The notes under the pieces were generated by a model, which had not been told where the DNA came from, did no database searches, and worked only from the letters and a program-made list of their open reading frames with translations. The position numbers and the translations under genes were made by a program. A DNA stretch of 64,000 nucleotides. Origin: a virus. Lineage: Duplodnaviria > Caudoviricetes. Positions 548-60,454 of this stretch are shown here, piece by piece. The stretch covers positions 32,001 to 96,000 of IMG/VR virus record IMGVR_UViG_3300037067_027616; one strand, written 5' to 3'. How positions within the stretch are numbered: the stretch's first letter is position 1; each line of letters begins with the position of its first letter.

Positions 548-8233
<7,686 letters not shown>

Positions 8234-36961: not shown

Positions 36962-38353
36962 CTACTTTCGCATCTCGATAAGGTACTTGAGCGTGCACTG
37001 CTCGAGGCTGTACACGATGAGTTCATCGTTGTAGAGCGAGTGTCCCTTCTTTGCCCATATGCTGTCGTATCCGTGCGGGCGTCTGCAGGAACTTGTCGCC
37101 GTATGGGTGCGGCCCATGGCAAAGTCGGCAAGGAAGAGGAAGGCGTTGTTTGCGGAACTGCGCCGAGCTCCCCAATAACCAATGCTGTAGTTCAAACTTT
37201 TGGTGGAGTTGTTGGCCCCGTAAACCCCATCGTCGAACATGCGGCCGGTCACGTGCCCTGCCGTGGACGGCGGAATGATGAGTCCGCCTTTCATAATTGA
37301 AAGGATGTTCGCGTTTGCGGAGCCGTGGAACACCTCCTGCACGTTACCGTAACGCTTCAGCGCCGCCTCGTACCTGGCGCGTTCGGCAGGCAACTTGACG
37401 CGGTACACCGCCGCGACATCGTAGTCCCACACGTCCGTGCCGCGGTGGTTGCCGGCCTTGCTACCGCGCACGTACGCCTTGATACGCTTGACCTCGTCCA
37501 GGTCATTGAGGAATTCGACCTCGGTGCCGAGAGCATTAAGCCTTTGGCCCGTGTTGCCCGTCATGGCGGCGCCCATCTTAACGCCCGTTTCGAGCTGGTC
37601 GAGGATGTCGAATTCTTTCATTACCGCATCGGAAGTGAGGATCATGTCATCGGCGCTGATCCTCATGCTGAACGCCTTGGGAATGAGCGAGAAGTAGGCG
37701 GAATTGGCCTTCTTAACGTCTTGGTCATCGGCATCGGCACCGTTCTTACCGATGAGGGCATTGACCGCCTGCAGGGATACGCGCGCCTTGGCGACGTGCT
37801 GCGGGGTGACCGGACCCAATTCCGTAGCGTATCCATTGGATGTGAACTTGATGTTCGTGCTGGAGGTGATGTTGTGGATGTTCTCCTGCACGAGTTGGTC
37901 GAGCAACTTGGAGATGCGCGGGTCGGAGTGGGTCGTGTCGATGGCGGTCTTGACCGTGACCGTTTTCTCCGCTTTGCCCCGTATATTCTCGCTGCCCACG
38001 GACGGGCTGACCACGTCCACATCTACATACGCCTCACGTTCACCGGTTTCCTTGTTCGTCTTGCCGCGCAGTTTTTTCTTGTGTATGTCTTCGAACTCTT
38101 CCCGTGCGGTGGCCTCATCGGTGACAGGACGGCCGTCAGCAATGTCCCGTACCTCGTAAATGTTAGTTATGCCAAGCCTGCCATAGTGCGTGAAGATGCG
38201 ATAACGACCCTGTGAGTTTTTCTGCAATTCCAAACAGAAATACTTGTTGTGATTCGTTGAAACATTCGCTTGATGCATCACATAATAGGTGAGAGTCTCG
38301 TTGAATCCATCGTTGGCGTTGCTGGCAACTTTCCTCACCGTGAACTTTGGCAT
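36962..38353 (-). CDS. PARP-family ADP-ribosyltransferase: WGR domain + helical regulatory domain + catalytic domain
   Basis: NHNKYF..HYGRLG (WGR), YFSLIP (regulatory), FHGS / GRMF..GVYGA..STKSLNY / NDELIVY (H-Y-E triad). Confidence 0.9.
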   Translation of the reverse strand: MPKFTVRKVASNANDGFNETLTYYVMHQANVSTNHNKYFCLELQKNSQGRYRIFTHYGRLGITNIYEVRDIADGRPVTDEATAREEFEDIHKKKLRGKTNKETGEREAYVDVDVVSPSVGSENIRGKAEKTVTVKTAIDTTHSDPRISKLLDQLVQENIHNITSSTNIKFTSNGYATELGPVTPQHVAKARVSLQAVNALIGKNGADADDQDVKKANSAYFSLIPKAFSMRISADDMILTSDAVMKEFDILDQLETGVKMGAAMTGNTGQRLNALGTEVEFLNDLDEVKRIKAYVRGSKAGNHRGTDVWDYDVAAVYRVKLPAERARYEAALKRYGNVQEVFHGSANANILSIMKGGLIIPPSTAGHVTGRMFDDGVYGANNSTKSLNYSIGYWGARRSSANNAFLFLADFAMGRTHTATSSCRRPHGYDSIWAKKGHSLYNDELIVYSLEQCTLKYLIEMRK

Positions 38354-39651: not shown

Positions 39652-40836
39652 TTAATAATCTTGGTCTATGTCATTCATCACGCAAAATATCGATGCACCC
39701 AACGTGACAATTATTGTAATGATGAACGTTATCAAAACTGCTTTTCCAGAGGGTTCAACGGACAGGTAGCTGAAATCCTTGAAAGACTTCTTAACGAACC
39801 CCACTTTAACCATATTTGCCATGGTGTCCACGACCGCTGACAGGTTAAGGGCCTTGCCGCCGGAGTCGGAGAACATCATATAGATCGTGCGCTCCACATC
39901 CAACTTGAGGCGATCAGATTCAGACCAAGAAAATACTTTAGTCCATTGCACCATGCGCTTGCTGTCGATTCCGATGCACAATACGAATTCGTTTTTGTTT
40001 CCTCCGCACCAATATGCTTCCTGCAGTTCGCCGGCTTCCCGGGCCTTGTCCGTGAACACCAATATGAGCATATGCACTTTCTTCATGGCACCGAGTTTTG
40101 CGTTCCACCATGAGAGCCGTTTGGAGGCGGCATGATCCGATATGCCCATTATCGGGTTGTAATTGAATATGTCATAGTTGTAGTTGTACCCATGTAACTC
40201 CAGCTTTTTTACATCATCCGCTTCCACAGGTTGAAACTTGAACACAGAGTGGGAGGCCTGCACCCGGTTCTCGTATGAATGAACCACACAAACCGATTGG
40301 GTGTGTTCAAACACGTTGTCAAAAACAGTCTGGTAAGCATCACCGTCTTGACCGCACCCGAAATGGTGGTCGATATTTCTGTTCATATCAACGAAGACGC
40401 GCCTATTCCATCGTTTGCATAGGTCCTCAAATAGATACTGACTGATACTGTATGTTCTGCCTAAATTATCTGTGGCACTCCATGTTGCCGAATACCGATC
40501 GCAATGGGAGCAATCATAAGACTCGGTGTGGCAGGTCTGCGTACAGGTTCTATCCTCACCGCTACCAGAGCATGTTTCTTCACACACTTCCCTATAACAC
40601 GTTTCATCGTCCCAGGTGCTCCAAGGCTCTATGTATTCAGCGCACGTTAAGTATGAGTTCCAGAACTCTCGATCGTACGTGGCGGACTTCTCCACGGTTA
40701 TTTTTGATATTGCTATGGTCAGTATGGGTATGCCAAACACCACGAGGTACTCCCACCAAGCCATGCTCCGGTGAAAGAATACAGCCAGAACGAGTACCGC
40801 CACGATAGGTATAATAAGGCAAGTCCAAATAACCAT
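39652..40836 (-). CDS. Membrane protein with Cys-rich loop and TPM-like extracytoplasmic domain
   Basis: Two N-terminal TMs, CxxxCxxTC loop, QEAYWCGGNKNEFVLCIG, C-terminal TM. Confidence 0.6.
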   Translation of the reverse strand: MVIWTCLIIPIVAVLVLAVFFHRSMAWWEYLVVFGIPILTIAISKITVEKSATYDREFWNSYLTCAEYIEPWSTWDDETCYREVCEETCSGSGEDRTCTQTCHTESYDCSHCDRYSATWSATDNLGRTYSISQYLFEDLCKRWNRRVFVDMNRNIDHHFGCGQDGDAYQTVFDNVFEHTQSVCVVHSYENRVQASHSVFKFQPVEADDVKKLELHGYNYNYDIFNYNPIMGISDHAASKRLSWWNAKLGAMKKVHMLILVFTDKAREAGELQEAYWCGGNKNEFVLCIGIDSKRMVQWTKVFSWSESDRLKLDVERTIYMMFSDSGGKALNLSAVVDTMANMVKVGFVKKSFKDFSYLSVEPSGKAVLITFIITIIVTLGASIFCVMNDIDQDY

Positions 40837-40864: not shown

Positions 40865-41131
40865 TTACCTATTGCGAATGACACCAAACCACCCTTGAGT
40901 TTGGGAAATTTTTTTGCCCTTTGCCTGTTGTACGGTTCTTTTAGCCCGAACTATGCGGTGGCGTTCCACGTTTTTGGCGCGGCGCAATATTTCCACGACC
41001 CTTTGTGCCCACGGGAGCCTACGTGCAGCCTCACGCCTAACGCCAGCGTCATCTGCATCGCAAATGGAATCCGCGACGAATGCGAACCCTTGTGGTGCCT
41101 CGATTTCCGCCCAAAACTCCTTGCCGTTCAT
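40865..41131 (-). CDS. Distal cassette ORF, hypothetical (degenerate attC)
   Basis: 5' GTTGTAGGCC at 41163-72, R''-like GTACAAC at 40927-33, RBS GGAGG. Confidence 0.55.
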   Translation of the reverse strand: MNGKEFWAEIEAPQGFAFVADSICDADDAGVRREAARRLPWAQRVVEILRRAKNVERHRIVRAKRTVQQAKGKKISQTQGWFGVIRNR

Positions 41132-41165
41132 GCCACCTCCTATGTGCATTTGCACTGCTCATGGC

Positions 41166-41600
41166 CTACAACGCTCGGATTGGTAAATCCCCTTCAACAC
41201 GATCAAGGTTGCTGAGCAGATTATCTTTGATGCAGGCGTGCAGATGGGGATTGTCGAGAATGTCCTTGCGGATAGCCTCGGCGCCTTCACCGACATATTG
41301 GAGTTTCTCACGTATAACCCATGAGCCCTCGGCAGAAGATCTTTTTAGCCAAGGTTTTCCAATACAATCTTTGCGATGCCCCCGGAGGATTCTCAAAAGA
41401 GATGCCCTTAACTCTTTGCGGACTTCTTCTTGGTCACGGTCGAGCTTCTGTATCCTCCAGCAGAAGAGGGAGTCTATATTCTTAATACCCAAAGGGGTGT
41501 ACGCGGCAAACACGCCCCCTCCACTGACCATTGCTTGATCAATGTAGAGTTCTTCAACTGTAGCTGGCATCAGCGGGAGAGACATTTGAAGGCATTCCAT
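41166..41600 (-). CDS. Hypothetical protein; only the right half of its attC is recognisable
   Basis: Stop TAG lies inside GTTGTAG. Confidence 0.5.
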   Translation of the reverse strand: MECLQMSLPLMPATVEELYIDQAMVSGGGVFAAYTPLGIKNIDSLFCWRIQKLDRDQEEVRKELRASLLRILRGHRKDCIGKPWLKRSSAEGSWVIREKLQYVGEGAEAIRKDILDNPHLHACIKDNLLSNLDRVEGDLPIRAL

Positions 41601-41611
41601 GATTACCTCTG

Positions 41612-42007
41612 TTATTTGGGTTTGCCTGTTTGGTTCCGTTGCTGAACATACTCCACAAACTGATTGATAAACTGAACGTAACTACCAGATGCTCCAACAA
41701 ATTTGATAAACGACTCGGCAAGTTCAACAATGGCATCCCTTGCATTGTTGGTGGCAGTGATCTGCTTTTGGGACGCCACGCCTGCTGCTTGCGGTTCAAG
41801 TGTCACGGTTGGCGTTGTACGATGGTAGTATACCCCCAGTTTGGCCGCGTGCTTTGACATCAGATCGCCAACGAAACACCCTAGTCCGTTGAACCGCTTA
41901 ATGCGCCACCCGCATGAACATTTTTCTCTGCCAGAACCATTCCCGCCACGCTCGCATTCACTGCATGCTACCCACAGCCTGTCTCTCGAATCGCGATAGC
42001 TTCTCAC
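41612..42007 (-). CDS. Cys-rich cassette ORF with left-half attC remnant
   Basis: R''-like CACCAAC at 41747-53; partial arms TTGTTGAAC/GTTCAGCAA. Confidence 0.5.
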   Translation of the reverse strand: MRSYRDSRDRLWVACSECERGGNGSGREKCSCGWRIKRFNGLGCFVGDLMSKHAAKLGVYYHRTTPTVTLEPQAAGVASQKQITATNNARDAIVELAESFIKFVGASGSYVQFINQFVEYVQQRNQTGKPK

Positions 42008-42055
42008 GTTCTCTCGCTTTGAACGCGGCCACTACCGTATGTGTGGCCGACTGTT

Positions 42056-42120
42056 GTACAACGTCTGCGCTAAACGGACGCTGGCTTGCTTTGAATCTGG
42101 CGTTCCTTTAGCTTTTGTGC
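42056..42120 (-). repeat. attC-14 (R'' mutated AAC to AAA)
   Basis: Arms GCTAAAGGAACGCCAG/CCAGCGTCCGTTTAGC; R' GTTGTAC. Confidence 0.7.
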
Positions 42121-42351
42121 GAAGTGAACTTGGCTCTCCTTAATTGGCCGTGAATCCACCCACTGTATATGAATCGGAAAACACGGAACAAGACAAATCC
42201 ATACTTCCACCAATTTACAAATTGGCAACGAAAAAGATGGTGCGCCTTGTGGCATACACGTTTCACCACTGCGCCAAAATACGCCAACCCACATATCTGC
42301 CAATTTGTATTCTAAACAAATGTTGAGCATAAATATCCTTTGAAAAATCAC
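42070..42351 (-). CDS. Cassette ORF, hypothetical
   Basis: DMWVGVFW...WICLVPCFPI motif; ends in attC-14. Confidence 0.55.
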   Translation of the reverse strand: MIFQRIFMLNICLEYKLADMWVGVFWRSGETCMPQGAPSFSLPICKLVEVWICLVPCFPIHIQWVDSRPIKESQVHFAQKLKERQIQSKPASV

Positions 42352-42381
42352 GGCCTATGACTCAAAAACCAAGGCCATTTT

Positions 42382-42462
42382 GCACAACGTCCGCCGCACT
42401 CGCCCGAAGCGCGGTACACTATTTTTTATTTTTCACCGCGTTTTGGGCTGCGGCTGTTGTGG
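42382..42462 (-). repeat. attC-13
   Basis: CCACAAC..GCCGCAGCCCAAAACGCGGT / ACCGCGCTTCGGGCGAGTGCGGC..GTTGTGC. Confidence 0.8.
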
Positions 42463-42700
42463 GTTGGCTTTCCATATTTTTATTCCGAACCTCCGCCGCG
42501 ATTTTGCATCCCTCAACATGGCAAAAATCGTCAATATGGCAATCGAAACAGCACGTCAAATTCGGACACGCGCTTTGAACAACTTGATAAACCTCATCGC
42601 CGAATTTCTCTAGCAAGCTATTAAGAATAAAAGTTACCATGCGAGAGTTTTCGTGCATGATAATCTGACAATGGTTACAATCCCTGTCACATAATTTCAT
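42419..42700 (-). CDS. Cassette ORF, Cys-rich hypothetical
   Basis: CDRDCNHC...CPNLTCCFDC..FCH..C; RBS AGGAG. Confidence 0.6.
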   Translation of the reverse strand: MKLCDRDCNHCQIIMHENSRMVTFILNSLLEKFGDEVYQVVQSACPNLTCCFDCHIDDFCHVEGCKIAAEVRNKNMESQPTTAAAQNAVKNKK

Positions 42701-42751
42701 TTTTATTTTCTCCTAGTGGAGGACTATAACTCAATTATTCTGCCAGGACGC

Positions 42752-43090
42752 TCAAAATATCTTTCCGCCGTGCATGTACTCACGGTTACGATTGAACTCG
42801 ATTTTAGCAACGATGGCTTCTGCCACTTTCCAACCACGAGCCACGGCAACATCCATGATTCGAATAACCACATCAGCCAACTCCTCCTCAACAGCCGAGA
42901 ACTCGCCAATGTGCTCCGATGGTGGGTTGCCATGGCGGAGCCCTTCCAACGCCTCGGACAATTCAGACACCATAAGCATGAGCAACTCGCCATTGTTGCG
43001 GTCGCCCTTCCACCACCCCTTTGATACGGCAATTTCTTGCACGGCGGCGGCTATAGACTCCCATTGATACACAAATGCTTCTTTACTCAC
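42752..43090 (-). CDS. MazG-like NTP pyrophosphohydrolase
   Basis: SELSEALE..EEELADVVIR..D; GTG start overlaps the upstream stop. Confidence 0.85.
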   Translation of the reverse strand: MSKEAFVYQWESIAAAVQEIAVSKGWWKGDRNNGELLMLMVSELSEALEGLRHGNPPSEHIGEFSAVEEELADVVIRIMDVAVARGWKVAEAIVAKIEFNRNREYMHGGKIF

Positions 43091-43392
43091 GATGAGCCTA
43101 CTTTCTTTCCCCGGCCTATCACGCCAGAGCGCGGTTTCCACTTACGACAAGGTGTTCCAAGCCAGAAACCAACATCCCTACATTTGGGATGATAACAATT
43201 ACGGCATTCGCGAACGGTTGAAACCTTTCGTTGTTTTACGGGTGGCTTCCGCCAAACTGTGCGGCGGCGCTCAACTGATTTCAGAGCGGCGGTCTTTTGC
43301 CACTCTACACCAGCGAGAAAACCCGCCACATACCCGGGGTCGAAGTGCATGTTATCAACATATTTTTCGGCATACTGCTGTGTTCGTGTCAT
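43087..43392 (-). CDS. Cassette ORF, hypothetical; reads through the whole of attC-12
   Basis: GFLAGVEW motif; RBS GAGGAG. Confidence 0.6.
   Translation of the reverse strand: MTRTQQYAEKYVDNMHFDPGYVAGFLAGVEWQKTAALKSVERRRTVWRKPPVKQRKVSTVRECRNCYHPKCRDVGFWLGTPCRKWKPRSGVIGRGKKVGSS
43135..43236 (-). repeat. attC-12 (R' mutated GTT to GTG)
   Basis: AAACAAC.GAAAGGTTTCAA / TTGGAACACCTTGTCG..GTGGAAA. Confidence 0.6.
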
Positions 43393-43428
43393 TTCATCGC
43401 TCCTCTAAAATGGTCGTCGCCACATTGC

Positions 43429-43561
43429 AAACAACGTTTGCGACACAAGTGAACGTGCCTATGGCCTGTGTTGACACGACTCGCACCATATAATACCACG
43501 ACTGTCACGATAACCAATTACCTTCATACACCCAGGGCATGTCACTTTGTCGTTGTTGTGC
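43429..43561 (-). repeat. attC-11
   Basis: GCACAAC.CGACAAAGTGACATGC / GCACGTTCACTTGTGTCG..GTTGTTT. Confidence 0.8.
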
Positions 43562-43674
43562 GATGCGGAAGGAGTGCCTACTTTATGTTCGTGTTGGCGA
43601 CCCATGAACCAGCCGCATAGCCAGAAAAAACCTGCACCCATCAGCACTGATACAGCAGTAAGTAAAAGTCCCAT
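43459..43674 (-). CDS. Cassette ORF: TM helix plus attC-encoded Zn ribbon
   Basis: Hydrophobic N-terminus; CPGC..WCESC lies inside attC-11. Confidence 0.6.
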   Translation of the reverse strand: MGLLLTAVSVLMGAGFFWLCGWFMGRQHEHKVGTPSASHNNDKVTCPGCMKVIGYRDSRGIIWCESCQHRP

Positions 43675-43715
43675 GTCGCCAACCTCCCGATTAAGAAAAG
43701 CATGACTGAAATTTC

Positions 43716-43856
43716 ACACAACGTCCTCAGGCACCCGCCCGAAGTTGCCGCCCACAGAATGGACAAAAATTATATCCATTTTCGAGATAATAGCCGAGTG
43801 AAGCACGCTCTTCACAGCACGCACATGGCGGCAATTTTGGGCTGCCTGTGTTGTCG
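43716..43856 (-). repeat. attC-10
   Basis: CGACAAC.CAGGCAGCCCAAAATTGCCGCC / GGCGGCAACTTCGGGCGGGTGCCTG..GTTGTGT. Confidence 0.85.
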
Positions 43857-44293
43857 GCTGTGGCCTGCGCCTGGGCCGGTTCCACGATTGCCGCGAGACG
43901 CAACAGATACCTATGCAACTCAACGGGCGTGCGATTCGGCAGAGACTTCTTGAGTGCGTCCAACTCCCGCGAAAAGTATCCGACATCGACACCCCATTGG
44001 CGAAGTTGCACTATTCGTGCGTTGACCTTCGCTATGACACGATCTTTTTTATGCAACCCAACACCGCATAGTAACTCGTAAATGTCTTCGAATAGTGCGA
44101 TTTCGTCCATGGCGCTGTTGTGTGCCGTGCCTAACTCCTTAGCTTTGAGCGCTGCCCACTCTGCCCTCTGTTGCCATGTACCTATTTTGTCGGGGCATAA
44201 GGCGTAAGATATTTCTTCAATTTTTTCGATAAGCCACTTACAGTTTATGCCAAGCTGATCGGCACGTTTTGTTTCCATTTCAAGTTTTGTCAT
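43727..44293 (-). CDS. Fused two-cassette ORF (188 aa) spanning inactivated attC-9
   Basis: Start MTKLEM after AGGAG; open frame across 43981-44123. Confidence 0.65.
   Translation of the reverse strand: MTKLEMETKRADQLGINCKWLIEKIEEISYALCPDKIGTWQQRAEWAALKAKELGTAHNSAMDEIALFEDIYELLCGVGLHKKDRVIAKVNARIVQLRQWGVDVGYFSRELDALKKSLPNRTPVELHRYLLRLAAIVEPAQAQATADNTGSPKLPPCACCEERASLGYYLENGYNFCPFCGRQLRAGA
43981..44123 (-). repeat. attC-9 (R' mutated GTT to GAT)
   Basis: ACACAAC..CCATGGACGAAATCGCACTATTCG / CGAATAGTGCAACTTCGCCAATGG..GATGTCG. Confidence 0.8.
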
Positions 44294-44323
44294 AGCCGCG
44301 CTCCTATCATTAAAGGCATGGCA

Positions 44324-44458
44324 CCACAACATTTTCTAAATGGTTGATAGTTGCCGCATAGCCTCGATAAACAATGAAACTGGACCAGGGATATTATATC
44401 GTGGAAAAGTATCAACTTCTGCAAGACGAGCGGCAATTTCAGCCTTTAGCTGTTGTAG
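44324..44458 (-). repeat. attC-8
   Basis: CTACAACAGCTAAAGGCTGAAATTGCCGC / GCGGCAACTATCAACCATTTAG..GTTGTGG. Confidence 0.85.
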
Positions 44459-44596
44459 GCTGTTTGAGGAGGCTTCCATAGCTTCCTCAAATTTGATATA
44501 TTCTCCGCACTCACCTTTGTCACACATCTGGATAAAATCTGAATATCCAACAGGGCTACGAACCAATTTGTACCTTGTTAAATTTTCTACTGACAT
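44336..44596 (-). CDS. Cassette ORF, hypothetical (ends LQQLKAEIAA...RQLSTI)
   Basis: Start MSVENL after GAGGAGG. Confidence 0.65.
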   Translation of the reverse strand: MSVENLTRYKLVRSPVGYSDFIQMCDKGECGEYIKFEEAMEASSNSLQQLKAEIAARLAEVDTFPRYNIPGPVSLFIEAMRQLSTI

Positions 44597-44615
44597 AAAA
44601 GCCTCCTCAAATGGA

Positions 44616-44766
44616 CGACAACGTGCGCCGTTATGTGCAATCCGCAACTTTGGGCGGATTGAGGCGCTGGTACAACCAATCAACAAACTTGGATGATTCG
44701 CTATCAGCAACTTCCTTAACATATTCTCGCACCACTTCAAGCGCCGTCACATAGCGGCTGTTGTCG
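44616..44766 (-). repeat. attC-7
   Basis: CGACAAC.GCCGCTATGTG / CACATAACGGC..GTTGTCG. Confidence 0.75.
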
Positions 44767-44879
44767 GATCGTTGAGCGAGTTCCTTTACTGTTTTCCATG
44801 CCTCGCTTACGACTGGAGATATTGGATACGATATATCTAAAAAATTCTCTACTATGGATACAGGATCTTGGCTTGGCAT
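44631..44879 (-). CDS. Cassette ORF, hypothetical
   Basis: RBS GGAGG; stop inside attC-7. Confidence 0.6.
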   Translation of the reverse strand: MPSQDPVSIVENFLDISYPISPVVSEAWKTVKELAQRSDNSRYVTALEVVREYVKEVADSESSKFVDWLYQRLNPPKVADCT

Positions 44880-44913
44880 GGAAAACCTCCAATAAATTTA
44901 AGAGCATAATGTT

Positions 44914-44984
44914 CGACAACGTCTCGGCGCACCGCCCGATGCGGTACGCTACTCCTGGCCCGTTTCGGGCTGCGCCTGTTGTGC
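44914..44984 (-). repeat. attC-6
   Basis: GCACAAC.GGCGCAGCCCGA / TCGGGCGGTGCGCC..GTTGTCG. Confidence 0.85.
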
Positions 44985-45197
44985 GTTGTTCTCACGCCTA
45001 CCACCGCATTCTGCAATTTGTGACTCCAGATAGTTGATAACGGACTGTCCTATGTGGTTCGCAATAGCAGTGGCGCGGAACCTTCTGCACCCAACGGCTA
45101 TTTCGTCGTCATTCACGCACAGTGGGTCGCAGGCCACATACACCGGAGTACGAGCGCCGCTGCGAACTTTGACAGAGAAACAAAGCTGATTTTTCAT
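44949..45197 (-). CDS. Cassette ORF, hypothetical
   Basis: Start MKNQL after AGGGGG; stop inside attC-6. Confidence 0.55.
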   Translation of the reverse strand: MKNQLCFSVKVRSGARTPVYVACDPLCVNDDEIAVGCRRFRATAIANHIGQSVINYLESQIAECGGRRENNAQQAQPETGQE

Positions 45198-45230
45198 AAC
45201 AAATTGCCCCCTAAAACGTATGAGAATTTC

Positions 45231-45293
45231 GCACAACGTTCCGTAAATGTATGTTCGTTTGGCTTTGCAAATGACATACTTTACGTGTTAGAC
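45231..45293 (-). repeat. attC-5
   Basis: GTCTAAC.CGTAAAGTATGT / ACATACATTTACG..GTTGTGC. Confidence 0.85.
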
Positions 45294-45511
45294 GAATTTT
45301 TTCCAGCTTCCTTATCTTCTTTCAACTGGCGAAAATCTTTTGGAATACGATTGATACCAATAATTAAACTAATGGGAGCAAACAAAAAATTCAAAACAAT
45401 AACCCAAATATCCTTAATGAGATAATTACCTGTAATAACATGTTGAACACGCACACAAAAAACTGCCCATAAACAACACATCAAAAAATAAAGAATAAGA
45501 AATGTTATCAT
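45281..45511 (-). CDS. Cassette ORF: small AT-rich two-TM membrane protein
   Basis: Two hydrophobic helices; visibly lower GC than neighbours; RBS GAGGAG. Confidence 0.6.
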   Translation of the reverse strand: MITFLILYFLMCCLWAVFCVRVQHVITGNYLIKDIWVIVLNFLFAPISLIIGINRIPKDFRQLKEDKEAGKNSSNT

Positions 45512-45558
45512 GTTTTCTCCTCGCCAGTTTAACTATAAATTCAAGTTGGCAAAATTTT

Positions 45559-45699
45559 GTCTAACGTCACGGCCTATGCCTGCTGTACCGGCCTACACAT
45601 GCGACACTTGATGCAGATTTCCCAACCGATCACGTGCTTATTTTCGATTGGAGTCCACTGGTGATCGCAGGCTGGTATGGCAGATTGGGTCTGTTGTAC
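45559..45699 (-). repeat. attC-4
   Basis: GTACAAC.GACCCAATCTGCCATACCAGCCT / AGGCCGGTACAGCAGGCATAGGCC..GTTAGAC. Confidence 0.75.
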
Positions 45700-45951
45700 G
45701 CCTGTACAAGACAACCGAACAGACATGACGCAATAGCCTGCCGGAATGCCAAACTGGCCGCCATCCACCTTGTACACCACTTCGACCGCCACTTCGCGGC
45801 CAGAGTATTCGCAAATTGACGGTGACCACTCCCGCAAACGCAGAGTGTCCCCGACAGCGTAATGGCGGTCGTCCTTCCGATACTCAAACGTCTTGACTCC
45901 ATCCACCATGTGCTGAAACACCGACGGCCAAGTCTTCAATTCGTGCAACAT
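45574..45951 (-). CDS. Cassette ORF: ASCH/PUA-like DUF3850 protein
   Basis: HELKTWP..F...G.KTFEYRKDDR.Y.VGD.L.LREW. Confidence 0.8.
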   Translation of the reverse strand: MLHELKTWPSVFQHMVDGVKTFEYRKDDRHYAVGDTLRLREWSPSICEYSGREVAVEVVYKVDGGQFGIPAGYCVMSVRLSCTGVQQTQSAIPACDHQWTPIENKHVIGWEICIKCRMCRPVQQA

Positions 45952-45973
45952 AACTGCTCCTCCCGTGTATGGC

Positions 45974-46044
45974 GTACAACGTTCACTGCATGGCGAAGTG
46001 GTGTTTTAACCATTTGCAAAGCGAACGCCATGCAGTTGTTGGGC
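45974..46044 (-). repeat. attC-3
   Basis: GCCCAAC.ACTGCATGGCG / CGCCATGCAGT..GTTGTAC. Confidence 0.85.
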
Positions 46045-46156
46045 GATGTAATTTTTTGCCATATTGATAGGCAATAACTTCAACCGCCTCGTTAAGTCCG
46101 ATTGGAATACCTTGTCGCACTAGGTCGCTCAACTTTTCCAATCTATCATCAACCAT
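45983..46156 (-). CDS. Cassette ORF, 57 aa, absent from the ORF track (MVDDRLEKLSDLVRQGIPIG...HHFAMQ)
   Basis: GGAGG RBS, ATG at 46156, TGA inside the attC-3 right arm. Confidence 0.6.
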   Translation of the reverse strand: MVDDRLEKLSDLVRQGIPIGLNEAVEVIAYQYGKKLHRPTTAWRSLCKWLKHHFAMQ

Positions 46157-46178
46157 AATTCCTCCAAAAAATTATTTC

Positions 46179-46316
46179 GCCCAACGTATGCTAAACGGCT
46201 GACAGTTGCCGCAACTTAGCACAAAAAGAGTTGGTTACATCACTATCGCACTTCCACGAACCTTTAGTTTGATACTCATTAACGACTGCGGCAATTTCAG
46301 CCTTTAGCTGTTGTAG
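46179..46316 (-). repeat. attC-2
   Basis: CTACAACAGCTAAAGGCTGAAATTGCCGCA / TGCGGCAACTGTCAGCCGTTTAG..GTTGGGC; two bulged bases. Confidence 0.9.
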
Positions 46317-46439
46317 GCCCGTTGTTTGCGACTCCGCCTCTTCCAGAGTTTTTATGGACAAGTCCACAGCCTCCGAAAGCATAATACGACCATGAGGATA
46401 GTTGCTCTTGAGAACCGCAATCGCTTCTTTATTGTCCAT
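46191..46439 (-). CDS. Cassette ORF, hypothetical (ends LQQLKAEIAA...RQLSAV)
   Basis: AGGAGG RBS; EAIAVLK.NYP...L.EAVDLSI motif. Confidence 0.65.
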   Translation of the reverse strand: MDNKEAIAVLKSNYPHGRIMLSEAVDLSIKTLEEAESQTTGLQQLKAEIAAVVNEYQTKGSWKCDSDVTNSFCAKLRQLSAV

Positions 46440-46473
46440 AAAAACCTCCTATGAATGGTTCGCAAACTATGGC

Positions 46474-46616
46474 CTACAACGTGTGGCAAAGGGTTGATGC
46501 AATTAAACGCTATAGGCCCCGCACCTATGACCACAACGTTTACCTCCGGCATAAGGACAGCTTTCAGTTTTACGACAGATGCTGCGTTTAATTGTTTCAC
46601 CCTTTGTAGGTTGGTG
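46474..46616 (-). repeat. attC-1
   Basis: CACCAAC..CAAAGGGTGAAACAATTAAACGC / GCGTTTAATTGCATCAACCCTTTG..GTTGTAG. Confidence 0.9.
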
Positions 46617-46745
46617 GCCCGTGGCCGCTTGCGCCTGGGCCGCCTCGACATCTGCAATGGCAATATTTAACGCTTCGCGCAAACCACCATATCTCTCGTC
46701 AGGCCAATTTGCCTTGATTAACCGTACAGCTTCTGCCCGTTCCAT
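46503..46745 (-). CDS. First cassette ORF, hypothetical
   Basis: EAVRLIKANWP..Y..LREALNIAI, related to the cassette-2 N-terminus. Confidence 0.6.
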   Translation of the reverse strand: MERAEAVRLIKANWPDERYGGLREALNIAIADVEAAQAQAATGHQPTKGETIKRSICRKTESCPYAGGKRCGHRCGAYSV

Positions 46746-46771
46746 TTAATCCTCTCCGGCCCGCAGGCCAT

Positions 46772-46810
46772 GGACACCAACTATACGTATGATGAAACGC
46801 CTTTGTGTAA
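46772..46810 (-). other. Candidate attI-like primary insertion site (...CATACGTATAG/TTGGTGTCC)
   Basis: GTTGGTG complements R'' of cassette 1 but has no hairpin upstream. Confidence 0.5.
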
Positions 46811-46835
46811 GACTTTGACTTTTATAGCTTTGATA

Positions 46836-47396
46836 CTACTCTTTTTTTACATTGAAAAGGTCAACGTCATCGTCCTTGCCTGTCTCAAAAGCCTTTTCAG
46901 TACGGGACGAGGTCACCAACTTGAGCTCGAGTTCTTTAGTGCCTTTAATAGATAAGAACAAAGACGATGGAAACAGCATCCTCAAATTGTCGTGTTCCCT
47001 CTTGATATCGATGAGTTTCTGCTGTACGCGAGAGAACTCCAAACGATTTGACTCGATTGCCAATGAAAGATCTTTGTACAGGCTGATATCAAATTGTGGG
47101 TTCTGCTCTTGTACCCACTTCATGAGAGTGCCGTCACCGGATCCGTACCTGGCATCCATTATTTGAACGTAAACCTCTTTGAATTTTTCAGAGTACTCTG
47201 CAGATACGCCGGCCTTCTGATGAATGACTTTCCACACCTTGTCATAAATCACCTCATTGGCCTTCTGTTGCGCCCCGAATTGTGTGCGGAGAACTACTTC
47301 TTGGTTGCTATAGGTGACAAACATTATGGCACCTACAAAAAGACAGAAAAGCACCAACGATGCAACCACCAACTTCACAAGTGTTTTAAAACTCAC
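46836..47396 (-). CDS. LemA-like membrane-anchored coiled-coil protein
   Basis: N-terminal TM, WVQEQNP, IESNR.EF..Q..LID.KR.H...FP. Confidence 0.6.
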   Translation of the reverse strand: MSFKTLVKLVVASLVLFCLFVGAIMFVTYSNQEVVLRTQFGAQQKANEVIYDKVWKVIHQKAGVSAEYSEKFKEVYVQIMDARYGSGDGTLMKWVQEQNPQFDISLYKDLSLAIESNRLEFSRVQQKLIDIKREHDNLRMLFPSSLFLSIKGTKELELKLVTSSRTEKAFETGKDDDVDLFNVKKE

Positions 47397-59242: not shown

Positions 59243-60454
59243 TTACCTTCCTTTCCGTTTCCCAAGGAGAACCCGAAGGTTGTCCGGGGTCACCCAAGGA
59301 GCCTGCACCCTGCGGAGCCTCTCCGACTCAAGCCGCGCGGTCGGGTCACGGTACAGCATGTCACCCTCGCCCGTCAAAGTCTCGGCACCGTTTTCGTCCA
59401 ACACCACACGCGAGTCCGCAGAAGAAGTCACCGAGAACGCCGCCCGTGCAGGCATGTTGCCCTTGATGAGGGACGTCACGACGGTTACCAAAGGCTTCTG
59501 CGTACCGAGTACCAGGTGTATGCCCACCGCCCGGGCCTTCTGCGCCAACCGCACGATAGCCTGCTCGACCGTCTGCCTCTGCTCCTTCGAACCCATCAGC
59601 ATGAGGTCGGCGAACTCATCAACAGCAACCACGATGTACGGGAACACGTTCTTGGGAGCGACCTTGTTATACTCCTTGATGTTCTTGCACCGGGCATCCT
59701 TGAGCACCTCGAAACGCCGCTCCATCTCGGCAACAGCGCCACGGAGAAGATCACGGGCCTCGTCAACTTCGTATGCAGGCTCGCCATCGACATGGCAGTC
59801 GCCTTCAAAGTCAGCGAACTCCACACGCTTCGGGTCGACCAGTTTCAAACGCAGACGGTCAGGCCCGAGGACGGCACACAGGGTGGAAAGCACCGAAGTC
59901 ATGAACACCGATTTGCCCGAACCGGTCTGACCGGCGACGAGCAGATGCGGCATGTCTGCAAGGTCACGGTAAACACCACGACCGTACGTGTCCTCGCCAA
60001 GGATGACAGGGAGCGCCATGCCTGCGGGGATGTTCGTGACAAGACCTTTGAAGTCAACCGAGAGACGAGTACCATTCTCGACCTCGATGCCGACAGTCAT
60101 GCTGCCGCTGGTAGCCTTGACGATGCGCAGGCTCGGCACACCAAGGTCCCGGGCGATGTCGTCCCGGTAACGCTCGATGGAAGACAGCCGGGTGCCAACG
60201 GGGATGGCAACCTCGTAGGTGGTCACCGAAGGGCCAATGCGATAGTCCTTGAAGGAACCTTCGAGGCCGTACCGAGCGAGAACTTCCTCGACCCGCGAAG
60301 GCTCGACAGGGGCCTTGAACTCTGCCTCACGCTTTGTGTCTTCGTCCGACAGTCCATCAAGAAGGGAAAGGTCAGGACGATGCCACGAGTAACGATTCGG
60401 GGACACAGCTTTCACAAGGAGCTTGAGTATCGAACCTGCTTTGCGAGTGTTCAT
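59243..60454 (-). CDS. ftsK: FtsK/SpoIIIE motor ATPase (alpha+beta domains only)
   Basis: GPSVTTYE, PHLLVAGQTGSGKS, VDPK.VE, VDEFADL, RAVGIHLVLGTQKP, SRVVLD..GAE.L.G.GDML. Confidence 0.9.
   Translation of the reverse strand: MNTRKAGSILKLLVKAVSPNRYSWHRPDLSLLDGLSDEDTKREAEFKAPVEPSRVEEVLARYGLEGSFKDYRIGPSVTTYEVAIPVGTRLSSIERYRDDIARDLGVPSLRIVKATSGSMTVGIEVENGTRLSVDFKGLVTNIPAGMALPVILGEDTYGRGVYRDLADMPHLLVAGQTGSGKSVFMTSVLSTLCAVLGPDRLRLKLVDPKRVEFADFEGDCHVDGEPAYEVDEARDLLRGAVAEMERRFEVLKDARCKNIKEYNKVAPKNVFPYIVVAVDEFADLMLMGSKEQRQTVEQAIVRLAQKARAVGIHLVLGTQKPLVTVVTSLIKGNMPARAAFSVTSSADSRVVLDENGAETLTGEGDMLYRDPTARLESERLRRVQAPWVTPDNLRVLLGKRKGR

Follow-up and report, generated by a model that had tools for sequence, protein, structure and literature searches.

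We describe an array of small gene cassettes at positions 40865–46781 of a 64,000-nucleotide stretch of phage DNA (the window), which spans bases 32001–96000 of the 466,729-base virus record IMGVR_UViG_3300037067_027616 (completeness 98%, CheckV). Sequence comparisons indicate, with a probability of about 0.68, that it is an orphan array of an integron-like system, one that would use a dedicated, XerA-like tyrosine recombinase without the I2 insertion in place of the integron integrase IntI. All genes and sites of the array lie on the − strand. Contigs of sequencing run X1 tile the region without mismatches, and it is therefore not an assembly artefact.

The repeated unit is a single small open reading frame (ORF) with a hairpin 3′ of it; the exception is 42463–43428, where three ORFs lie between intact sites. 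Eleven hairpins have both box cores intact and two have one core mutated, giving 13 that fold, in addition to remnants. A first, sequence-only reading had counted 14 hairpins of 63–151 bp. The lengths held and 13 hairpins fold, but the 14th (~43133–43239) is degenerate and does not fold as a terminal hairpin. That reading had also given each hairpin about one co-oriented small ORF with a ribosome-binding site, which is clear in most cases, but weak or unclear at 44949, 42070 and 41612. Our own site scanner found 10 sites in the 6-kb region versus 0–1 per shuffle (200 shuffles) and none in the rest of the window; since its registers were derived from the window's own sites, this count is partly circular, whereas the following offset test is not.

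The offset concerns the R′′ box (core AAC) at the start of each hairpin, which had been proposed to complement the GTT box at the cassette's own 5′ end rather than the downstream one. In cassettes 1–10, the four variable R′′ positions fit the cassette's own 5′ box in 37 of 40 cases and the downstream box in 21 of 40. The mean of 200,000 permutations was 21.4, and none reached 37. Complementarity to the own box was 7/7 in cassettes 1–7 and 6/7 in cassettes 8–10, with sites decaying further out, so that the proposed offset was borne out. When 54 cassettes were pooled, R′′ matched the own 5′ box at 179 of 216 positions and the downstream box at 106 of 216 (permutation maximum 136). One hairpin family has a constant R′′ side, and its sequence is variable after G/TT. 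Cassette units join at G/TT. The box cores AAC and GTT are present, with the flanking consensus GTTGTNG and not GTTRRRY. The inverted orientation, in which the hairpin moves with the downstream gene, was considered and ruled out: heads are hairpin-free and the R′′ side stays with its hairpin family.

At the head of the array lies an attI-like and dif-like entry site without a hairpin (46770–46797, − strand). It has the 11+6+11 layout of dif-type sites (PMC4246890), with a left arm of 11 bp (46797–46787), the 6-bp centre GTATAG (46786–46781) and a right arm supplied by cassette 1, which starts at G/TT without an upstream hairpin; the crossover falls at 46781/46780. The layout fits the window head and 23 related heads (24 loci). 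Heads terminate in AG/T in 19 of 20 loci, and hairpins in CG/TT in 99%. A search of viral contigs for the exact head sequence gave no match.

The entry site overlaps a 50-bp block (46774–46823, − strand) that is 98% identical to the head of a second array (genome 144103–144152). This array, which occupies ~140.6–144.2 kb of the genome on the − strand (L087), has its head 65 kb from the first, begins with a different cassette and likewise decays with distance from its head. There the block forms the 3′ end of a 77-aa gene; the head of the first array is therefore the copy. The second copy of the block was also found as a contig in run X1 and as a loose end in run X3. One cassette ORF of the second array is homologous to that of window cassette 8 but is followed by another hairpin. 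The sequence-only reading, correct about the array itself, had overlooked both the entry site (46770–46823) and the second array. In phage G007 the head is also duplicated with differing first cassettes: at 40.4–41.7 kb (L049), a module of a small gene and an entry site occurs twice, 1003 bp apart, with cassettes between and different loads.

Recombinase-free heads (L087:6111–6344, − strand; L003, L006, L007, L049, L053) usually follow a gene of 68–77 aa, in the position of the recombinase. These genes show a weak ribbon-helix-helix likeness (Atlas 0.93, a weak match) and possibly encode an array regulator. Most could not be aligned with one another; only those of array 2 in the present genome (G000) and of G002 align (53%).

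We searched the genome for the enzyme. No tyrosine recombinase matched with PF00589, TIGR02249 or the L100 protein as query, and a profile search with filters off (hmmsearch --max, all frames, translation tables 11 and 15) found none either (best E 0.49). The suggestion that the enzyme comes from outside thus gained support: with no tyrosine recombinase encoded in the genome, it probably acts in trans. Two complete phages (G001 and G171) likewise carry arrays without a recombinase. Linked enzymes were found elsewhere. A search of bacterial genomes yielded a 288-aa recombinase gene directly followed by a head and the same cassettes (L071/L100), and complete elements of recombinase, head and sites occur there, in G003 and at L161. 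In a prospective test on six relatives of L100, DNA was available for five; in each of these, the stop codon is directly followed by a head and by sites on the same strand, and the heads have nine bases in common with the window head. Such sites accompany 9 of 11 chromosomal loci in Fibrobacterota, where all 18 sites lie downstream on the recombinase strand, and 22 of 81 genomes of the class that contains G011 and G012 encode an enzyme without I2. Among 80 viral tyrosine recombinase loci, two have downstream arrays of this kind, four low-GC phages have divergent related arrays and most others have none. The four (L164, L168, L196, L222) encode related recombinases without I2, and in L168 the cassette ORF opposes the site orientation. 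Another phage carries a recombinase and array inserted between terminase-like and portal genes (L296:7001–13800).

The array-linked recombinases contain SAM_4 and Phage_integrase domains, match NCBIfam NF040815 best and score below the TIGR02249 cut-off. They are without the I2 insertion, keep the catalytic residues R-K-H-R-H-Y and have XerA as best PDB match. In a quick tree, a single clade (98) unites the IntI rows, and the array-linked enzymes fall neither within it nor among the XerC/D rows. The proposal that the enzyme is IntI was thus not borne out. The window has the head with its AG/TT end and the same-strand asymmetric hairpins behind it; the adjoining recombinase gene is absent, which makes the array an orphan. 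Related phage contigs were binned with a Chitinivibrionales metagenome-assembled genome, which is not proof of a host, and release-factor and HU searches gave nothing usable for host assignment. By association, Fibrobacterota are the best host candidates. A short ORF of 188 aa with a GGQ motif resembles peptide release factors (L293:1438–2004, − strand; genome ~209.4–209.9 kb).

Could ordinary host enzymes do the same work? Dimer resolvases, XerC/XerD or a single Xer, might act on the dif-like head and the folded sites as they do with CTX phage, with no dedicated enzyme needed. FtsK activates Xer recombination in bacteria, and the window carries an FtsK/SpoIIIE-like gene (59243–60454, − strand; phrog_1358, E 1e-81). 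The head arm after the G, with consensus TTGTNNGCAAT, resembles the XerD arm. The head has the dif layout (PMC4246890), XerCD, which lack I2, recombine folded single-stranded DNA (PMC4246890, PMC7790495), and the complete phages G001 and G171 are also recombinase-free. Against this, the recombinases that adjoin these sites are always of the dedicated type without I2 and not XerC/D, most other viral tyrosine recombinase loci lack such an array, and the arms vary too much among cassettes for sequence-specific XerCD binding. We therefore consider this explanation unlikely.

The locus was compared with relatives. The upstream flank is a phrog_1383 gene (46836–47396, − strand), outside the array, and the downstream flank a phrog_2087 gene (39652–40836, − strand), its neighbour in relatives. 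Among 55 informative relatives, 48 have the two genes separated by 3–2338 bp, and none has sites; here the distance is 6 kb. As the flanking genes are adjacent in relatives, the array represents an insertion. Run X3, which stems from a different study, contains the flanks at about 96–98% identity as well as the distal array. Its contig with cassette 5 has different neighbours on both sides (depth 7.3 versus 7.1–8.0 for the flanks), and cassette 10 has a different upstream hairpin. The switches between X3 and the window fall at R′ boxes. Array parts uncovered in runs X2 and X3 were excluded from the evidence. Cassette content and order thus vary among relatives, the check that had been proposed, as judged from metagenomic X3 contigs and from duplicated heads with different first cassettes.

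These data bear on the possibility that the array is an inert block, assembled elsewhere and captured once with a piece of head, with strain differences arising by homologous recombination between similar hairpins. Array 1 does have a copied fragment as its head and a truncated distal end, the genome is recombinase-free, and sites 2 and 8 have 31 identical bases in common. However, both head copies are intact and carry different first cassettes; the R′′ matches are perfect beside the head and decay outward; and X3 differs near the head while keeping the distal part, with switches at R′ boxes between dissimilar hairpins. An inert block is accordingly rather improbable.

The fold of the sites sets them apart from canonical attC. 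For each of the 11 sites folded, the bottom strand was more stable than the top, and the circular-junction form was as stable as the linear form or more so. From the R box, the bottom-strand fold continues with a G-T pair (121 of 126 viral sites), a bulge of 3–4 nt, a covarying 6-bp helix and further bulges. Hairpins were compared by fixed-register counts, as variable loops made a MAFFT alignment unusable. Both in the window folds and in the 126 viral sites, it is the R′ arm that carries all unpaired bases, whereas attC is defined by extrahelical bases on the R′′-L′′ arm (PMC2727003). The claim that these are ordinary attC sites consequently did not hold. Pairing extends beyond the R box, over ~22 bp of the cassette ends: in 76 cassettes, positions 1–9 pair, positions 10–11 almost never do (0.12 and 0.03) and positions 12–22 pair above permutation (sum over positions 8–20: 7.26, permutation maximum 4.43).

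These features also bear on a classical cluster of attC sites lacking integron-integrases (CALIN) that is served in trans by a host IntI. Such a cluster would share the AAC and GTT cores, the G/TT offset and the more stable bottom strand; IntI is found in the candidate host phylum, and IntI1 accepts diverse phage attC sites (PMC9892861). Here, however, the bulges sit on the R′ arm; when the first extrahelical base of attC was transferred to this arm, bottom-strand recombination by IntI1 fell 50-fold and the crossover shifted (PMC2727003). In our own scanner, canonical attC registers fit no window site. In the published TJE1 sites, which are symmetric and fold canonically, the bulges occupy the arm opposite to that seen here. 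Finally, in the Fibrobacterota genome G012 the IntI integron has canonical sites (5/5), and the recombinases without I2 have the R′-arm-bulge type. We regard service by host IntI as quite improbable. One observation on G012 stands apart: its canonical IntI integron (C18) and its three recombinases without I2 (C15, C24, C25), with their different site type, are two parallel cassette systems in one genome. A host IntI serving the array had been the first idea and was dropped, given the differing site types in G012 and the linked enzymes without I2.

That the hairpins are terminators or miniature repeated elements without site-specific recombination is largely refuted and highly improbable: many hairpins do lie at gene ends, but U-tract terminators were not in excess (14 found, 10.1 expected), an Rfam search of the hairpins gave no match, ORFs read into the hairpins, and offset, heads and linked recombinases would go unexplained. 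In 51 of 65 assignable cases the ORF stop lies within the hairpin; the sites therefore also encode protein tails. A promoter scan likewise gave no excess over shuffles (14 versus 14.6), and we therefore claim no cassette promoter.

The cargo had been described as typical small phage ORFs such as DUF3850. This was confirmed for cassette 4, whose ORF matches PF12961 (E 5e-26), and a platform fed by a pool of phage-type cassettes is supported. The DUF3850 cassette has a homologue (45%) in a recombinase-bearing locus, and a MazG-like ORF (42752–43096) is 68% identical to a cassette in the recombinase-bearing locus L294. One hairpin family recurs in 11 stretches of 10 other viral records, with arrays reaching at least 16 sites. 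The viruses sharing the cassette system span 44–467 kb and 29–49% GC. Array DNA had no match among 50,697 GenBank phages; against the 81 genomes of the G011 class it gave a single hairpin match, on a phage contig. Taken together, the offset, the X3 neighbours and homologous cassettes elsewhere support the proposed phage platform for gene capture and shuffling by site-specific recombination at G/TT.

From the head outward, all on the − strand, the cassettes are arranged as follows. Site 1 (46474–46616, 143 bp) contains the end of the cassette 1 ORF (46503–46745, 80 aa, phrog_30902). Site 2 (46179–46316, 138 bp), of a widespread family shared with site 8, is read through by ORF 46191–46439. Site 3 (45974–46044, 71 bp) goes with ORF 45983–46156, and site 4 (45559–45699, 141 bp), the weakest fold, with the DUF3850/ASCH-like ORF 45574–45951. 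Site 5 (45231–45293, 63 bp; ORF 45281–45511) is the one with other neighbours on both sides in X3. Then come site 6 (44914–44984, 71 bp; ORF 44949–45197), site 7 (44616–44766, 151 bp; ORF 44631–44879) and site 8 (44324–44458, 135 bp; ORF 44336–44596). In cassette 8, end-to-end pairing (44452–44475 with 44599–44622) covers the ribosome-binding site and, on the mRNA, could affect translation.

Beyond cassette 8, site 9a (43981–44123) has a mutated R′ core (GAT) and is spanned by ORF 43727–44293, two cassettes fused. Site 9b (43716–43856, 141 bp) belongs to the family of the chromosomal sites behind recombinases without I2, and site 10 (43429–43561, 133 bp) goes with ORF 43459–43674. In the decayed stretch 42752–43392, ORF 43087–43392 lies over the degenerate site (~43133–43239) and is followed by the MazG-like pyrophosphatase ORF. 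Site 12 (42382–42462, 81 bp) goes with ORF 42419–42700, and site 13 (42056–42120, 65 bp; ORF 42070–42330) has a mutated R′′ core (AAA). The distal decayed cassettes (40865–42055) comprise ORFs 41612–42007, 41166–41600 and 40865–41131 with half-sites only; these remnants, at 41820, 41753, 41171 and 40933, lie beyond the last foldable hairpin.

Several points weigh against an array dependent on a dedicated enzyme without I2. The link between sites and enzyme is one of association between sequences, and the enzyme would probably have to be supplied in trans, by the host or a co-infecting phage. The window head is one base longer than the heads of the L100 family. Our quick tree leaves the position of L100 open, as it does whether the array enzymes without I2 form a single clade. 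True IntI occurs in Fibrobacterota as well, with 30 of 151 genomes above the cut-off. The X3 contigs are metagenomic and may derive from other phages sharing the pool. A junction of excised circles was looked for and not seen, in contigs only, which cannot exclude circles.

For the proposed system without I2, we envisage the following mechanism. An enzyme encoded on the host chromosome or by a co-infecting temperate phage would act in trans, binding to the entry site and to a circular cassette through its folded non-coding strand. A single strand would be exchanged at G/TT and the junction resolved by replication. New cassettes would enter at the head, while older ones would shift outward and decay. 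In the circular cassette, the ~22-bp end pairing outside the R box would create a nearly double-stranded, Xer-like arm beside the G-T pair and the 3-nt bulge; with such an arm, the I2 helix may be dispensable, as at the folded CTX phage site. In CTX phage, the substrate recombined by Xer enzymes without I2 is a folded strand mimicking duplex DNA (PMC4246890, PMC7790495), and by analogy the outer pairing could supply this mimicry. The payoff would be accessory phage genes held in a shared pool.

The array has much in common with integrons, both class 1 and the chromosomal ones of Vibrio: an entry site followed by tandem single-ORF cassettes, AAC and GTT cores, a G/TT crossover, an R′′ that fits the own 5′ box, a bottom strand that folds better and newest cassettes at the head. 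It differs in the enzyme, which has I2 in integrons, where I2 is considered necessary for cassette capture (PMC7790495), and lacks it in the recombinases linked to such sites elsewhere. It also differs in the fold, since attC has an unpaired central spacer where these sites have a G-T pair, a 3–4-nt bulge and bulges on the R′ arm. Moreover, cassette ends pair over ~22 bp here, ORFs usually run through the hairpin, and the gene for the recombinase without I2 lies upstream in the same direction, with its stop at or near the entry site. Given the linked enzymes and the bulge arm, the array is not classed as an IntI integron.

Clusters of attC sites in phages have been published (PMC9892861), and phages were thus already known to carry cassette arrays. 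The CALINs of the virulent phages TJE1, PH101 and P12002L (Qi 2023, PMC9892861) are likewise site clusters in integrase-free phages, and orphan methyltransferase-type and hypothetical cargo is common to them and to related arrays. TJE1 has three canonical sites and four ORFs, whereas the present array has 13 hairpins of non-canonical fold, its defined entry site is duplicated, and cassette age follows a polar gradient. Polaribacter phage P12002L has a few asymmetric sites (L379: 38876–40952 and 30005–30059), which are opposite to the gene direction and may belong to the wider class without I2. Xer/dif recombination at CTX phage attP(+) (PMC4246890) shares the 11+6+11 layout, the pairing of a folded single strand with a double-stranded site and an enzyme without I2. 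The closest structural match of the linked recombinase is archaeal XerA (PDB 4a8e, 5hxy). Integrative mobile elements exploiting Xer (IMEX) insert once, as a whole, at chromosomal dif; here many unrelated genes enter serially at a phage-borne site, with an apparently dedicated single enzyme. The class without I2 is apparently undescribed: our literature search found no description of it, with most subscription papers outside the search.

Elsewhere in the window, a collagen-like tail fibre gene (548–8233, + strand) encodes 2561 aa, and the gene at 36962–38353 (− strand) encodes a 463-aa protein matching phrog_23333, annotated as polymerase.

Intermediates between Xer recombinases and IntI have been noted as lacking (PMC7790495). 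With a natural cassette system without I2, the origin of integrons becomes accessible to experiment, using an enzyme of 270–290 aa, short hairpins and a head of 28 bp. Since I2 and canonical attC are prerequisites in standard integron searches, these probably miss this class. The enzyme could serve as a compact gene-stacking tool orthogonal to IntI, given that one bacterial genome contains both systems, each with its own site type. For the phages, the array provides a concrete explanation of how clusters of tiny variable genes could arise in their genomes. In a wider picture, to which we give roughly even odds, phages of environmental bacteria would share a cassette pool and an integron-like, Xer-type machinery without I2, possibly a living intermediate between Xer/dif and integrons. 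Large phages would keep and duplicate only the entry site, and an enzyme of the host or of a neighbouring phage would load genes during infection; the 22-bp end pairing would belong to the recombination site and may be a trace of the way in which cassettes form.

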